NCBI GenBank assembly: GCA_963693095.2
Contig: OY843768.1
Span: 896,001-960,000, forward strand
DNA length: 64,000 nucleotides
Source of the DNA: Cenarchaeum sp.
GTDB lineage: Archaea > Thermoproteota > Nitrososphaeria > Nitrososphaerales > Nitrosopumilaceae
Direction: 5' to 3'
The notes beneath the pieces are model-generated. The model was not told where the DNA came from. It searched no databases and worked only from the letters and a program-made list of their open reading frames with translations. Made by a program: the position numbers and the translations under genes. Below, in pieces: positions 20,549-64,000 of this stretch; the stretch's first letter is position 1; every line of letters begins with the position of its first letter.

Positions 20549-21085
20549 ATGAGGGCAGAGCTCGTCGACGGCAGGGTCGTCGTGTGGAATACCGATGATG
20601 CGGCCCGCCTCTTTGAGTCCGGCTATTACGGAAAGCCAATAGGAATTCCAAAGCCAAAGCCCGGCGAGATCAACGTTCCGCTCATACTCGACCTGTTTGA
20701 GGCGCGCTATCTCGAGGAGCGCGGACTGATAGCAGTGTACGAGGGCGCGCGGCGCGTCTCGCGCAAGTCCCTCCTCGGGGCGTGCAGGGACAACCATGCC
20801 GGATTTGACACAAAGTATGCAGTCTATACCGACTTTAGGGACAAGGGATACATTGTTACGACTGGCATAAAGTTTGGGTGTGACTTTGCAGTCTATGAGC
20901 GCGGGCCGGGAATAGACCATGCGCCATACCTTGTCCAGGCCCATGCGCGCGGCGATGCCATAACGGCGACTGGAACGGTCCTCGCGGGCCGGCTTGCGAC
21001 GACTGTGCGAAAGCAGTTCATACTGGCAATGCCGGACAGGCGCGGCGGTGTTGCGCTAGTTGCGCTTGACTGGTGGAAGGCCTAG
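20549..21085 (+). CDS. endA: tRNA-intron (BHB) splicing endonuclease, catalytic subunit
   Basis: GIKFGCDFAVYERGPGIDHAPYL and RLATTVRK supply the Tyr/His/Lys triad. Single unit of 178 aa. Confidence 0.95.
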   Translation: MRAELVDGRVVVWNTDDAARLFESGYYGKPIGIPKPKPGEINVPLILDLFEARYLEERGLIAVYEGARRVSRKSLLGACRDNHAGFDTKYAVYTDFRDKGYIVTTGIKFGCDFAVYERGPGIDHAPYLVQAHARGDAITATGTVLAGRLATTVRKQFILAMPDRRGGVALVALDWWKA

Positions 21086-59338: not shown

Positions 59339-60100
59339 ATGGCAACAGCAATGGCCGTGGTTCCCGAGGCCGCACTACTAGTCGAGGAGGGCGCCGAGCG
59401 CACGCTTGCCGTGGCCGACGCGCACGTCGGCTTTGAGGCTGCCATGGCCGGCAGGGGAGTGCGCATGGAGAGCGGGGGGTCTGCGCGCGAGATGGCCGAG
59501 GCCATTGCGCGCATTGCCACACGGGCGCGTGCCACGCAGATTGCGCTCCTAGGCGACACAAAGGCCGGCACGTCGCGCATAGCCGGCCAAGAGTGGGACG
59601 CCGTGCCGGCGTTCCTCTCGCGCCTCGCCGACGTGGCCGAGACTGTCGTCATACCGGGCAACCACGACGCCGGAATGGCGCACCTCCTGCCTGATGGCGT
59701 CTCAATGTCTGCGCCATCCGGAATCGTCATCGGCGACACGCTCCTCACGCACGGCCACGCCATGCCGTCAGGAAATCTTGGCGGCGTGTCGCGAATTGTC
59801 ATGGGGCATGCGCACCCCACGGTTCGTGACGCGTCATCGGTCCTCGGCGGCCAGCGCGTCTGGGCATCAATGGTCATCTCGCGCGACTGCGTCTTTGCGT
59901 CATACGGCGGAACGCTAGAGATAACCATAGTGCCCTCGTTTAACCGCTATATCACCGCACCGCCGGGGCGCGCGGCGCGACGCGCGCGCTCACCGATACT
60001 AGAGCGCGCAAGGCAGGGCGTCGTCTCGGCCAAGGTCATCACGCTTGATGGCGCCATACTTGATGACGGGCCTTCAGCCCTCGACGGTGTTGTCTGGTAG
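59339..60100 (+). CDS. Calcineurin-like metallophosphoesterase
   Basis: ADAHVG, LGD, GNHD, THGH and GHAHP. Confidence 0.9.
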   Translation: MATAMAVVPEAALLVEEGAERTLAVADAHVGFEAAMAGRGVRMESGGSAREMAEAIARIATRARATQIALLGDTKAGTSRIAGQEWDAVPAFLSRLADVAETVVIPGNHDAGMAHLLPDGVSMSAPSGIVIGDTLLTHGHAMPSGNLGGVSRIVMGHAHPTVRDASSVLGGQRVWASMVISRDCVFASYGGTLEITIVPSFNRYITAPPGRAARRARSPILERARQGVVSAKVITLDGAILDDGPSALDGVVW

Positions 60101-63100
60101 GGCGTCATATGGCTCTAGCGCATGGCGTGTCGTCTTGTTTGAGCCAAGCCATTCCAGCGTCTTTACGAACGACTCGGCGAGCTCGGGGGTCGTGAGAACG
60201 GGTATTCCAAGCTCGGTTGCCTTGCGGCGTATCTGGTACTCGTCATAGAGCATGCCGACATACTTTTCCATCGTCGACGTGCTGGGGATGTTTATGATAA
60301 AGCTGATCTTGCGCTCATAAAGAAGATCCGCTATGTTGGGCTTGCGGTCAGGCTCGCTTATCTTGTGAACGGTTCCGACGTCACTCATGCGCCCGCGCAA
60401 AAACTCGGCAGTGTGCTCTGTTGCGAGTATGTCAAATCCAAGGTCCCCGAGGCGCGCGATCGTGCGCATGAGGCGCTCACGGTTTCGCTCGCCGCCGATC
60501 GTGACGAGTGCCGTGCCCGAGGCAGGCAGGTTGTATCCCACCGACGTGAGCGCCTTTGAGAGCGCGTCATAAAAGCTCGTCCCAAAGCATGCGGCCTCGC
60601 CAGTCGACTGCATCTCGACGCCGAGCACAATGTCGGCCCCGTCAAGCTGCATAAAGGAGAACTGGGGGACCTTTATCCCGTGCGTGTTGGCAGGCACGCC
60701 TGCGCCGGGGAGCGACTCGGGCACTCGGTTTCCGAGTATCGCCGAGGCGGCCATCTCGATGAGGTTGGTCCTTGTGAGCTTTGAGACAAACGGCATGGAG
60801 CGCGACGCGCGGATGTTGAGCTCGATCACATAGGGCACTCCCTCGTGTATGAGGAACTGGAGGTTGAACGGGCCGCGCACGTTAAACTCTGGAATGATGC
60901 TGCGCGTATAGCCCTCGATCGCCTCGATCGTGCTGGATCCCAGACGCCATGGCGGTATGCACATCATTGCGTCACCCGAGTGGACTCCCGCACTGTCAAT
61001 GTGCTCGACTATGGCGCCTATAAAGACGCGCTCGCCGTCACACACGCCATCAACGTCGACCTCCAGGGAGTTGAGCATGAACTTTGATATGACGACAGGG
61101 TGGTCCGGTGAGAGCGTCGTGGCGTCGCGTATGTAGGAGCTCAGCTCGCCCTGCGACCAGACAACCCTCATCGCCGCGCCGCTAAGCACGTACGACGGAC
61201 GGACAATTACGGGGTACCCGACGCGCTGCGCAAACGTGCGCGCCGCGTCCATGCTCGAGAACGCCTCCCAGGGCGGCTGCTTTATGTGGAGCGAGTCAAG
61301 TATGCCGCTAAACGTCGAGCGGTTCTCGGCCCTGTCAATGTCGGCGGCTGCCGTGCCGAGGATGCGCACGCCGTGCTCGGCGAGGCTTGGAGTCAGGTTG
61401 TTTGCGGTCTGTCCGCCAACGCAGGTGACCGTGCCGCGCGGTGACTCAAAGTCCGATATGTCAAGTATTCGCTCAAGCGTGAGCTCCTCAAAGTAGAGAC
61501 GGTTGCAGATGTCATAGTCAGTAGACACCGTCTCGGGGTTGCAGTTGACTAGCGCGATCTCGGTGTCTGGCTGCGCAAGGCCCCAGACCATGTTTACCGT
61601 GCCCCAGTCAAACTCGACGCTGCTGCCGATGCGGTAAGGGCCGGCACCCAATATGACCATGCTTGAGGAATTGCGCGGCGGCTCTATGTCATCGGAGTCA
61701 CCACCGTACGTCATGTAGAGATAGTTGGTCTGCGCAGGCCATTCTGCGGCAAGCGTGTCTATCTGCTTTACGCGCGGCACGATTCCCATGCGCTTTCTCT
61801 CCTCACGGACGCCGTCAGGGGGCATGCCCTTTGCGCGCGCGACCTGCGCATCAGAGAATCCAAGGCGCTTTGCGTGCCGAAGGGACTTGGCCTCAAGGGG
61901 GCCGCGCCCAAGGCCACCGGCAACGCCGACGATGTTGCGGACCTTTTCGACAAACCACTCGTCGATATATGACAGGCGCGTTATCTTTTCAGTGTCCATT
62001 CCGGCAGCGATTGCGCGCGCGACCCAGTAGAGTATCATGTCATCAGGCCTGCGCAGGGCGTGCTCTATGGCCTCCTCGTCAGCAGACGTCACGTCGTTGC
62101 GGTTTAGGACGAGGCCGTCAAGTCCCGTGTCGAGCATGCGTATGGACTTTTGGAGCGCCTCCTCAAACGTGCGCCCTATGCCCATGACCTCGCCGACTGA
62201 CTTCATCGTGGGGCCCAGGGTGCGCTCGGCCAGCTCGAACTTTGCAAAGTCCCAGCGCGGGTGCTTGCAGACGACATAGTCAAGCGAGGGCTCAAAGCAT
62301 GCAGTAGTCGACTTTGTTATGCGGTTTGCAAGCTCGGGCAGCGAGTACCCAAGGCCAATCTTGGCTGACATGTACGCCAGAGGGTATCCCGTGGCCTTGC
62401 TCGCAAGGGCCGATGAGCGCGACAGGCGCGGGTTTACCTCAATGGCCGCATGGCGTCCCGTGCGCGGATCGAGTGCAAACTGGATATTACACTCACCGAT
62501 GATCCCCACATGCGACGTCGCGCGCAGTGACGCAGACCGGAGCGTGTGGTACTCGGTGTTGTCTATGGTCTGTGACGGCGCAACCACAATGTTGTCGCCG
62601 GTGTGGACCCGCATCGAGAGGACATTCTCCATGTTGCACACGATGACGCTGTTCTTGAGGGAGTCTCGCATGACCTCGTACTCGATCTGCTTCCAGTCCC
62701 CGACGTACTCTTCTATGAGAACCTGCCCGACGAGGCTTGCAGTCATCCCGCGGCCCACGGTCTCGTGGAGCTCGATCTCGTTGCGCGCGACGCCGCCGCC
62801 CTTGCCGCCAAGCGTGTATGCCACGCGCACGATAACCGGATAGCCGATCTCGGCGGCGGCCTCGTGCGCTGCCTCAAACGTCGTGACCGTGCGGCTGCGC
62901 AGCATGGGCACGCCGCACTCGCGCATCGACTCCTTGAAGAGGCGCCGGTCCTCGGTTCTGCGTATCCCGTCGACCTGCGTGCCGAGGACCCGAACCGAGT
63001 ACTTTGAGAGGACCCCGGACTCGTCGAGGCCAACGCCGCAGTTGAGCGAGGTCTGCCCGCCGTAGGCGAGCATGAGCGCATCGGGCCTCTCGGACTCTAT

Positions 63101-63351
63101 TATCGACGTCACGTACTCGGCGTTTACCGGAAGGAGGTACACGCGATCCGCAAAGCGCGTGTCAGTCTGTATGGTCGCCACGTTTGGGTTGACAAGGACG
63201 CTCTTTACGCCCTCCTCCCTGATCGCCTTTAGGCACTGGCTTCCGGAGTAGTCGAATTGGCGGCCGTTTTGCGGCTCTCGCCGGCTTCTCCGATCTTTAT
63301 TGCCCCGCTTCCGAGGACCAGTATCTTTCGCGGCGTCTCTCGCCTAGCCAG
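60074..63351 (-). CDS. carB: Carbamoyl-phosphate synthase large subunit in two exons (63351-63277 and 63256-60074), about 1085 aa if spliced
   Basis: Exon 1 reads ...KILVLGSGAIKIGEAGE. Exon 2 reads FDYSGSQCLKA...VNPNVATIQTD and is in frame with the 1035-aa ORF, which has both ATP-grasp halves and the MGS domain. Confidence 0.93.
63257..63276 (-). other. Candidate 20-nt BHB-type mRNA intron in carB
   Basis: Sense sequence GGCG-AG^A-GCCG-CAAAA-CGGC-CGCC-AA^T. Excision at the marked sites gives GGC GAG TTC GAC TAC (GEFDY). Confidence 0.8.
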
Positions 63352-64000
63352 GTGTTACCTCCCCCATAAGGCGCGAGAGTTCGTCAAAGACAAAACCGCA
63401 GTCATAGGGTCCCGGTGACGCCTCGGGGTGAAACTGCACCGCAATGCATTTTCCTCCCGAGTGCCTGATGCCCTCAACGGTCTTGTCATCGGTATTGGTG
63501 AACCACAGGTCAAACTCCGAGCCCTCCAGCGACTCGGGATCTATGCAGTATCCGTGGTTTTGGCTCGTGACGTACACGTTGCCCGTGTTCACGTCAAGGC
63601 ACGGCTTGTTCTGCCCACGGTGGCCGTACCTCATCTTGTACGTGCTCGCGCCGCCGGCCAGCGCTATAATCTGGGCGCCAAGGCATATGCCAAGCGTCGG
63701 TATTCCACGCGAGACGAGTTCGCGAACCGCATCAACTGCCTGTGGACAGTGCTGCGGGTCGCCCGGACCGTTGCTTATTATCACGCCGGCCGGATCGTGC
63801 TCCAGTATGCGCGATGCCGGCGTGTCCCATGGCACGACGACTGCGCGAAAGCCCATGCGGCAGACATTGCGCAGTATGGCGTTCTTTACTCCCGTGTCAA
63901 CGATGACGACTGTCCGGCCCTTGCCGTATGAGACCTCGCGTGTCGTGGAGACTGACTCGACGAGCCGCTCAGACGCATAGTCGTGGCCCCCGATGGAGCG
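63344..64000 (-). CDS. carA: Carbamoyl-phosphate synthase small subunit, 5' end outside window
   Basis: SNGPGDP, GICLG, GHRGQN, SQNHGY and QFHPEASPGP. The frame continues to the window edge. Confidence 0.97.
   Translation of the reverse strand, partial: RSIGGHDYASERLVESVSTTREVSYGKGRTVVIVDTGVKNAILRNVCRMGFRAVVVPWDTPASRILEHDPAGVIISNGPGDPQHCPQAVDAVRELVSRGIPTLGICLGAQIIALAGGASTYKMRYGHRGQNKPCLDVNTGNVYVTSQNHGYCIDPESLEGSEFDLWFTNTDDKTVEGIRHSGGKCIAVQFHPEASPGPYDCGFVFDELSRLMGEVTPG

Follow-up and report, generated by a model that had tools for sequence, protein, structure and literature searches.

The window analyzed here, a 64,000-nucleotide stretch of Cenarchaeum sp. DNA, carries the end of carA (small chain) and the whole of carB on its minus strand. 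carA ends at 63344, downstream of the CTG codon (63351-63349) at which exon 1 of carB starts. Read on the minus strand, carB continues as GGC GAG, followed by a 20-nt insert (63276-63257), followed by TTC GAC TAC TCC GGA. As a preliminary description of this DNA had claimed, the insert splits a conserved CarB motif (IGEAGE|FDYSG); a placement test leaves a single position for the removal of 20 nt, with a boundary that cannot slide. Without removal, translation would pass through the 25 codons of exon 1 and 15 more before the TAA at 63231-63229, and the resulting length of 40 amino acids agrees with that description. The features of the locus are listed in Table 1.

Table 1. Features of the carAB locus and of the EndA gene in the window (coordinates are window positions unless stated otherwise)
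Feature	Position	Strand	Basis or remark
carA (small chain), 3' part; directly upstream of carB, overlaps its start, extends past window end	63344..64000	-	
carA apparent start	G000:C1 about 960460-960520, just past window end	-	loci L034-L113
Shine-Dalgarno-like GGAGGT, 5 nt before carB CTG, within last carA codons	63357..63362	-	sequence; position conserved in relatives; function presumed
carB exon 1, 25 codons, CTG start to Glu codon equivalent to human CPS1 Glu440	63277..63351	-	
Candidate carB intron, 20 nt	63257..63276	-	unique placement; site and register same in relatives
Predicted cuts AG^A (after 63277) and AA^U (after 63257)	candidate carB intron	-	coding boundary coincides with predicted cut
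carB exon 2, 1060 codons, open from FDYSG to stop	60074..63256	-	sole carB copy in genome
TAA ending unspliced carB translation after 40 aa	63229..63231	-	sequence
Central helix H, exon-1 strand GGCG, pairs with 63262-63259	63279..63282	-	comparison, consensus fold
Central helix H, intron strand CGCC	63259..63262	-	96.3% of cells paired in 47 distinct 21-nt inserts
3-nt bulge AGA with predicted 5' splice site	63276..63278	-	fold, RNAalifold consensus
Intron hairpin h', GCCG-CAAAA-CGGC	63263..63275	-	100% of cells paired; two-sided changes in 3 of 4 pairs
5-nt side of internal loop with predicted 3' splice site (AA^UUC)	63254..63258	-	consensus fold
Proximal exon-exon helix, UCGGAG (63293-63288) / CUCCGG (63248-63243) and three inner pairs	63243..63293	-	99.2% paired
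Distal exon-exon helix, GGGCA (63305-63301) / UGCCU (63235-63231)	63231..63305	-	94.0% paired
EndA catalytic alpha subunit, Lys-bearing loop, Tyr/His/Lys motifs	20549..21085	+	best PDB matches 3p1z_B (E 3.5e-38), 2cv8_A, 3ajv_B, 2zyz_B

According to the predicted fold, the RNA around the insert resembles the archaeal bulge-helix-bulge (BHB) motif. Exon 1 pairs with the 3' end of the insert in a 4-bp central helix (GGCG/CGCC), and AG^A lies in a 3-nt bulge that would be cut after its second base and is closed by the hairpin h' (GCCG/CGGC). The helix, the AGA bulge, the GCCG-CAAAA-CGGC hairpin and the AAU had all been described previously and stand as given. The preliminary description had also let a second bulge or loop begin at AAU, and had offered GAA/UUC or UCGGAG/CUCCGG as the exon-exon helix. 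The AAU holds, but not as a canonical bulge, since the 3' cut falls in a 1 x 5 internal loop; likewise UCGGAG/CUCCGG is recovered while GAA/UUC is absent from the consensus, in which GGGCA/UGCCU forms a further, distal exon-exon pairing under selection. The canonical hBHBh' form, whose second 3-nt bulge is closed directly by the exon-exon helix, is therefore not what lies here. In the relaxed HBh'/BHL form, as defined in the available portion of PMC5829648, one bulge is intact and the other is replaced by a loop that is likewise cut after its second base; the carB motif, as predicted from its letters, is of this type.

The penultimate base of the insert is A in all 108 distinct exon-codon/insert pairs, and both helices fell in register in none of 200,000 shuffles of the insert. 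The fold of the whole region is only mildly unusual when a single sequence is considered (z -1.4, with 13 of 200 shuffles equally stable), so that the case for an intron rests on comparison rather than on energy. For instance, 55 of 84 genomes examined carry an insert of 17-28 nt at this site and 29 do not; the alignment of Nitrososphaerota carB genes that had been proposed as a check thus yielded same-site inserts, and these show compensatory changes. Anchoring 40 distinct local sequences at the boundaries gives a complete 4-bp central helix in 35 and 3 of its 4 bp in the other 5; none of the 40 has an intron hairpin shorter than 3 bp. The same structure tally among the 120 named records listed gave 105 and 15. 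In a gap-free alignment of 47 distinct 21-nt inserts (1034 cells), 97.4% of the cells pair, compared with 26-53% in slid controls. Two-sided changes number 34, whereas shuffles give 7.5 and none of 500 reaches 34; these counts are not to be read as probabilities because the structure was derived from the same sequences and the sequences are related. Most of these changes lie in the intron hairpin; the central helix has just one, plus several G-U changes, as expected where codons fix its exon side. RNAalifold, run without a given structure, recovers the same helix, bulge, hairpin and outer helices.

The exons are constrained as well. The paired synonymous sites are fixed across 45 insert-bearing genomes, which represent 19 genera (ATC, GGA, GGC and GAC in 45 of 45 each, TCC in 43 of 45); in 27 intronless genomes from 4 genera the same synonymous positions vary or have shifted. 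Unpaired wobble sites that lie between the paired ones vary with and without the intron, and this interleaving argues for selection on pairing rather than for a copied tract. The paired-site pattern agrees in 5 of 5 independent pairs, a sample that cannot reach p<0.05.

The insert is widespread. A search of relatives matched 34 of 41, and 26 of the 30 loci returned have an insert at exactly this site. In a draw of 401 genomes from the phylum, all 62 members of the family matched the flanking motif, 35 with and 27 without an insert among the matches listed; in the same draw, and again among the matches listed, two genomes outside the order have inserts of different sequence. A second family was matched in 216 of 238 genomes; judged by eye, the insert is present in 142 of the 150 matches listed out of 219 (four of the 142 from genomes flagged unpublished), and the 8 insert-free matches among those 150 all belong to one genus. 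Named genomes add at least 120 records with an insert of 17-38 nt at the carB site, with titles that include Nitrososphaeraceae, Nitrosocosmicus, Nitrososphaera, Nitrosotalea, Nitrosotenuis, Nitrosarchaeum, Nitrosopumilus and Nitrosopelagicus, as well as two Methanosarcinales and one Woesearchaeota bin. The insert of the window recurs letter for letter in two records titled Cenarchaeum sp., so that the host is probably an ammonia oxidizer near that genus. Cultured or named strains with an insert include Ca. Nitrosotenuis chungbukensis MY2, Ca. Nitrosopumilus salarius BD31, Nitrosopumilus sp. b1 and Ca. Nitrosotalea bavarica.

Several loci from unexpected sources deserve mention. Outside the order, loci L070 (genome G184) and L071 (genome G190) are interrupted at this codon boundary too; their inserts, which come after argG-carA, form a different central helix (GCGG/CCGC) and, judging from their sequences, may be an independent insertion. 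Same-site inserts of 17-18 nt are also found in L168, L198, L196 and L213, from bins that were deposited under the labels Methanosarcinales, Woesearchaeota and 'archaeon'. Locus L148, titled Heimdallarchaeota, has an insert of the Nitrosopumilaceae type and may be a mis-binned contig.

The genome, which is 99.55% complete, contains one carB, and a search for the second intact copy that the preliminary description had allowed for found only this one. No carbamate kinase scored above its family cut-off in the genome, and two carbamoyltransferase genes are present; together with the single carB, this suggests that the organism should need CarB. When an uninterrupted relative is aligned to human CPS1, the last codon of exon 1 corresponds to Glu440, and the carbamate-tunnel loop comprises human residues 430-443 (PMC4655335, in the part accessible). 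In the 45 insert-bearing genomes of the family, pairwise codon differences are 4892 synonymous to 343 non-synonymous at codons -17 to -7 of exon 1, and 1030 to 0 in its last six codons. Exon 1 is under purifying selection in insert-bearing genomes. The CarB of this lineage (P0001, window 60074-63351) scores 1029 bits against human CPS1, and 839 bits against the next-best solved large chain (1bxr_A).

Annotation of these genes has suffered, in line with an earlier expectation that they would appear as 5'-truncated. The deposited CarB of this gene is a truncated form of 1035 aa (3 of 4 cluster members) whose start is 25 codons inside exon 2, where an in-frame GTG is located. Two database CarB proteins, P0102 and P0105, have a false N-terminus in which the insert is read through in the frame of exon 2, and the nearest locus to them is an intron-bearing relative. 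Two protein searches returned no uninterrupted CarB more than 97% identical to any intron-bearing locus, and 117 of 120 full-length protein matches were nearest to intronless loci. The peptide predicted to span the junction of spliced CarB is IGEAGEFDYSGSQCLK.

The enzymes for tRNA-type splicing are encoded in the genome. The EndA alpha subunit aligns with 3p1z_B and 2cv8_A, structures of the crenarchaeal type, over the specificity loop and the Tyr/His/Lys motifs. There are two EndA-domain genes, the second of which does not have the His motif, as expected of a structural subunit, and RtcB is intact (a 490-aa open frame). The genome thus encodes an (alpha-beta)2 EndA with a Lys-bearing loop together with the ligase, and relaxed HBh' motifs are known substrates of two-subunit EndA with a Lys loop (PMC5829648, excerpted text). 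The gene for EndA alpha lies in the same window as carB and immediately follows a gene that encodes a helical protein of 220 aa.

A genome-wide scan for the motif, suggested in the preliminary description, gave 1461 matches, of which 5 candidates passed the coding filters, carB among them; the scan was strict, so that looser introns may escape it. The other four candidates proved to be junctions between neighboring genes. cbf5 is uninterrupted in this genome. Ten of its tRNA genes, viewed by eye, contain no intron that resembles the carB motif. Two tRNA genes, at G000:C1:336780-336935 (-) and 484857-484978 (+), have long or possibly double introns, and ARAGORN may have mis-typed them.

How, then, is the insert to be explained? 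That it is an artifact of assembly or sequencing deserves practically no credence, as gap-free contigs from runs of three studies span it. Four of 4 public runs (3 studies, all contigs of unrecorded kind) show no indel and no joint at the insert, contigs from runs X2, X5 and X6 cross the site with 0 gaps, and the insert is identical in 4 of 4 congeners; nothing was found in favor of an artifact. The insert is thus real DNA. Real DNA could still be a decayed insertion whose remnant is the hairpin, with carB either a pseudogene or the source of a functional 5'-truncated CarB (1035 aa) translated from an internal start. Databases do carry such a form, and the in-frame GTG would serve as its start, but exon 2 of the sole carB is intact, and exon 1 remains under purifying selection. 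Moreover, the first internal start varies in position (codon 9 to 62), the missing part would include the tunnel loop, and exon 2 is full length or open to the locus end in most insert-bearing loci. The breaks in exon 2 that do occur are scattered over differing places, one of them in an intronless genome. Truncation or decay is therefore very unlikely. Premature stops far downstream were seen at scattered places in 12 loci; the readable ones look like indels of one base, point stops, a gap or a deletion, and there is no evident further carB intron in these 12. Scattered single-base breaks further down carB in L156, L141 and the L084-L104 group (G324, G011, G012), one of them in a complete genome record, look like sequencing errors.

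Two further explanations leave the gene functional but assign the insert to another machinery. Ribosomes might shift frame, read through or hop across the insert on unspliced mRNA: a hairpin with a loop stop right after the take-off codon resembles ribosome bypass signals, of which T4 gene 60 is an example, and in the window one frameshift inside the insert would restore the frame too. Against this, relatives require corrections of 0, +1 and +2 at one site, as insert lengths of 17-38 nt cover all three phases, and no single frameshift explains them. In-frame inserts hold TAA, TAG or TGA at varying positions, some of them two stops, and the last three bases of the insert match the take-off codon in 0 of 108 exon-codon/insert pairs, which speaks against hopping. 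Recoding would also leave 6-13 extra residues in the tunnel loop, and would leave the register of helix and bulge and the frozen exon-exon helices unexplained; it is most improbable. Removal from the RNA by something other than EndA and RtcB, whether another nuclease-ligase pair or self-splicing, draws what favor it has from the 3' site, which is no canonical bulge and at which EndA cleavage is a prediction. Group I and II ribozymes need far more than the 20 nt available, no Rfam family matched up to E 1 in 62800-64000, and no group I or II catalytic core was found there. In addition, the predicted cuts obey the EndA rule and the genome encodes the very type of EndA that acts on HBh' motifs, so that such removal is highly improbable.

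The insert is very probably an intron of the relaxed-BHB (HBh') type within coding sequence, removed at the RNA level by EndA and RtcB. This reading draws support from the recurrence of inserts at the same site in three phases, from compensatory pairing, from boundaries that fall after the second base, from the single gene copy and conserved exon 1, and from the presence of a matching EndA. It is also what the preliminary description had proposed, namely a tRNA-type BHB intron with cuts AG^A and AA^U that restore the frame, and the comparison with relatives, the unique placement and the type of EndA present support that proposal. In the scheme that follows, the fold of the carAB transcript is shown by comparison: GGCG of exon 1 pairs with CGCC of the intron, the intron forms its hairpin, and the two exon-exon helices act as a clamp. 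The two-subunit EndA would then cut the AGA bulge and the AAU loop, each behind its second base, and RtcB would join the exons. Spliced mRNA would restore G-E-F-D-Y in the carbamate-tunnel loop and encode a CarB of about 1085 aa, and unspliced mRNA would give rise to a dead-end peptide of 40 aa.

The stops in the inserts follow a rule. An in-frame stop is found in 42 of 42 distinct inserts of length 3n and in 41 of 62 of other lengths (Fisher p 6e-6, with kin that are not independent); in the other two frames of the same 42 inserts, a stop is found in 1 and 7. In 3n inserts without a stop in the loop, the last codon is TAA in 3 of 3, and by eye the same holds in two further genera. Frame-preserving (3n) spliceosomal introns of eukaryotes are likewise selected to carry a stop, a bias that is linked there to nonsense-mediated decay. 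To our knowledge, no such decay pathway has been established in archaea. In carB the rule therefore probably reflects selection against CarB made at full length with its tunnel loop disrupted.

The closest known system is the intron that Desulfurococcales and Sulfolobales carry in cbf5 pre-mRNA, for which Watanabe 2002 and Yoshinari 2006 are reportedly the works cited. Like the carB insert (17-38 nt), the cbf5 intron is short (16-44 nt), lies in coding sequence at a functionally critical residue, and has a relaxed BHB motif cut between the second and third bulge base in hosts with a two-subunit EndA; it is too short for a nuclease gene, and some lineages have lost it secondarily (Yokobori 2009, PMC2738675, in extract). 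The two differ in that cbf5 encodes an RNA-modifying enzyme and carB a metabolic one, in that the cbf5 intron lies inside a codon and the carB intron between codons, and in lineage, as the carB intron is found in ammonia-oxidizing archaea and their kin; neither Cenarchaeum nor Nitrosopumilus is listed with a cbf5 intron in the consulted part of PMC2738675. Precise loss and apparent regain among genomes 90-99% alike, and a stop in every 3n insert, further set carB apart. Splicing of cbf5 has been established by cDNA and in vitro, whereas that of carB is predicted from sequence. cbf5 had been named in the preliminary description as the established archaeal mRNA intron; it is one, but not the sole case, given the BHB intron in HVO_1309 of Haloferax volcanii (PMC7714728; PMC10485636; both in part). 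That intron, too, makes an mRNA a substrate of EndA, but it lies in the 5' UTR, breaks no reading frame, and occurs in a host with EndA of the homodimeric type. HBh' introns of archaeal tRNAs, cut by (alpha-beta)2 EndA, share the topology of carB: the exon half of H comes first, then the bulge that takes the 5' cut, then h' and the intron half of H, and the 3' cut falls in a disrupted bulge (PMC5829648, excerpt). The context differs, as carB is an mRNA whose two exon-exon helices are built from synonymous codon choices.

In the sections of the literature available, cbf5 was the sole confirmed case in 2009, with others predicted (PMC2738675); in 2020 the HVO_1309 5' UTR intron was added and cbf5 called the only earlier example (PMC7714728); and in 2023 at least two genes were counted, with more expected (PMC10485636). 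A literature search over largely open-access texts found no paper on a carB intron, and the portions seen of PMC12397907, PMC3082918, PMC6125680 and 10.64898/2026.10.13.758758 contain nothing on it. Within the searchable literature, carB would thus be the second family of tRNA-type introns in archaeal coding sequence after cbf5. If so, splicing of mRNA by the tRNA machinery is not confined to cbf5, and a class that is nearly empty gains a case in a central metabolic gene, widespread among ammonia-oxidizing archaea. It would also mean that CarB is mis-annotated in intron-bearing genomes, either as truncated or with a false N-terminus read through the intron. Splicing could be tested at once in cultured insert-bearing strains, and close relatives with and without the intron form a natural series for its loss, its regain and the relaxing of RNA-structure constraint on codons.

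One candidate for a spliced transcript emerged from a scan of a metagenome collection for the exact junction with intron-type codons, which returned 14 contigs; compared with the initial intron-bearing loci, none of them is more than 77% identical. Contig L240 (4899 nt) differs from genome G431 by 51 mismatches and one 1-nt gap in 2962 nt, and is without exactly the 27-nt insert of G431, at the predicted cuts. Its 5' end corresponds to G431:C32:5398, about 29 nt past a conserved TATA box that precedes carA across the order; the presumed transcription start is no more than about 10 nt away. If collinear, its 3' end would lie near 472, in the 416-656 gap between carB and a convergent gene. L240 would then cover just the carAB operon, and a contig of that extent looks like an assembled transcript. 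Exact absence of an insert between close DNA genomes does not prove splicing, as DNA genomes 96-99% alike also differ in this way (the insert is absent from G813 and present in G754/G718, with identical flanks), and the case for L240 rests on its two ends. It is a hint of a spliced transcript from a relative of G431, or alternatively a loss allele. Another of the 14, L238, shares 98.6% identity over exon 2 with an intron-bearing genome and falls in a group that includes an insert-free DNA genome; L235 is placed in the same mixed group.

The history of the site appears to be one of loss and regain. On a tree made by a quick method (83 rows, with G184 left out as too short and base composition uneven), the insert is patchy, with 7 changes of state in which gain and loss are not separable. 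Within genus g39, the flanks range from unchanged (G813, L238 and nearly L235) through a partly relaxed state in G788 and G877 to full relaxation and an ATG start in G154 and G234, a series that fits repeated precise loss followed by decay. G817 has exon 1 and the insert of the G754 group and an exon 2 nearer to intronless neighbors, and its sequence fits a short-tract regain by an apparent recombinant. Four nested intron-bearing alleles from genus g13 were tested, and their likeness to intron-bearing genera is found mainly up to about 90 nt from the junction, a pattern that fits both regain and retained constraint. A regular-expression search of 1342 ORF segments around carB found no LAGLIDADG-like motif, and a homing endonuclease of family PF14528 was not found in this genome; the insert is too short to hold the endonuclease that marks a mobile intron, and these searches showed none beside it. 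Loss templated by spliced RNA has been proposed for cbf5 (PMC2738675, in part) and by analogy is plausible for carB, although selection alone would also explain why deletions are exact. Overall, the carB intron would be old in the order (it is very common in at least two families), under structural selection, lost precisely and apparently regained in several lineages.

A more far-reaching proposal is that the intron is maintained as a control or quality step, tying the supply of carbamoyl phosphate (for arginine and pyrimidines) to the tRNA-splicing machinery. A weak CUG (or AUH-type) start would slow entry into exon 1, EndA would act before ribosomes melt the structure, and the obligatory stop would discard unspliced message; the site would cycle through RNA-templated precise loss and short-tract regain with no linked endonuclease. 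This proposal is doubtful. Hints in its favor are the series from unchanged to relaxed flanks after loss, the one apparent recombinant, and a bias in start codons: CTG or AUH-type starts occur in 40 of 45 intron-bearing genomes and in 1 of 27 intronless ones. Against it, the link between start and intron agrees in 3.9 of 5 independent pairs, which is not significant; fresh intron losses retain the CTG start; and carA, too, appears to have an AUH start regardless of the intron.

By type, the carB starts in the 45 intron-bearing genomes of the family are 32 CTG, 8 of the ATA/ATC/ATT/TTC type and 5 ATG, and in the 27 intronless genomes 13 ATG, 13 TTG and 1 CTG. carA, in nearly all relatives, with or without the intron, starts at an apparent ATA/ATT codon after a conserved TATA box and GAGGG. 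Judging from this sequence context, the annotated start of carA is probably too far downstream.
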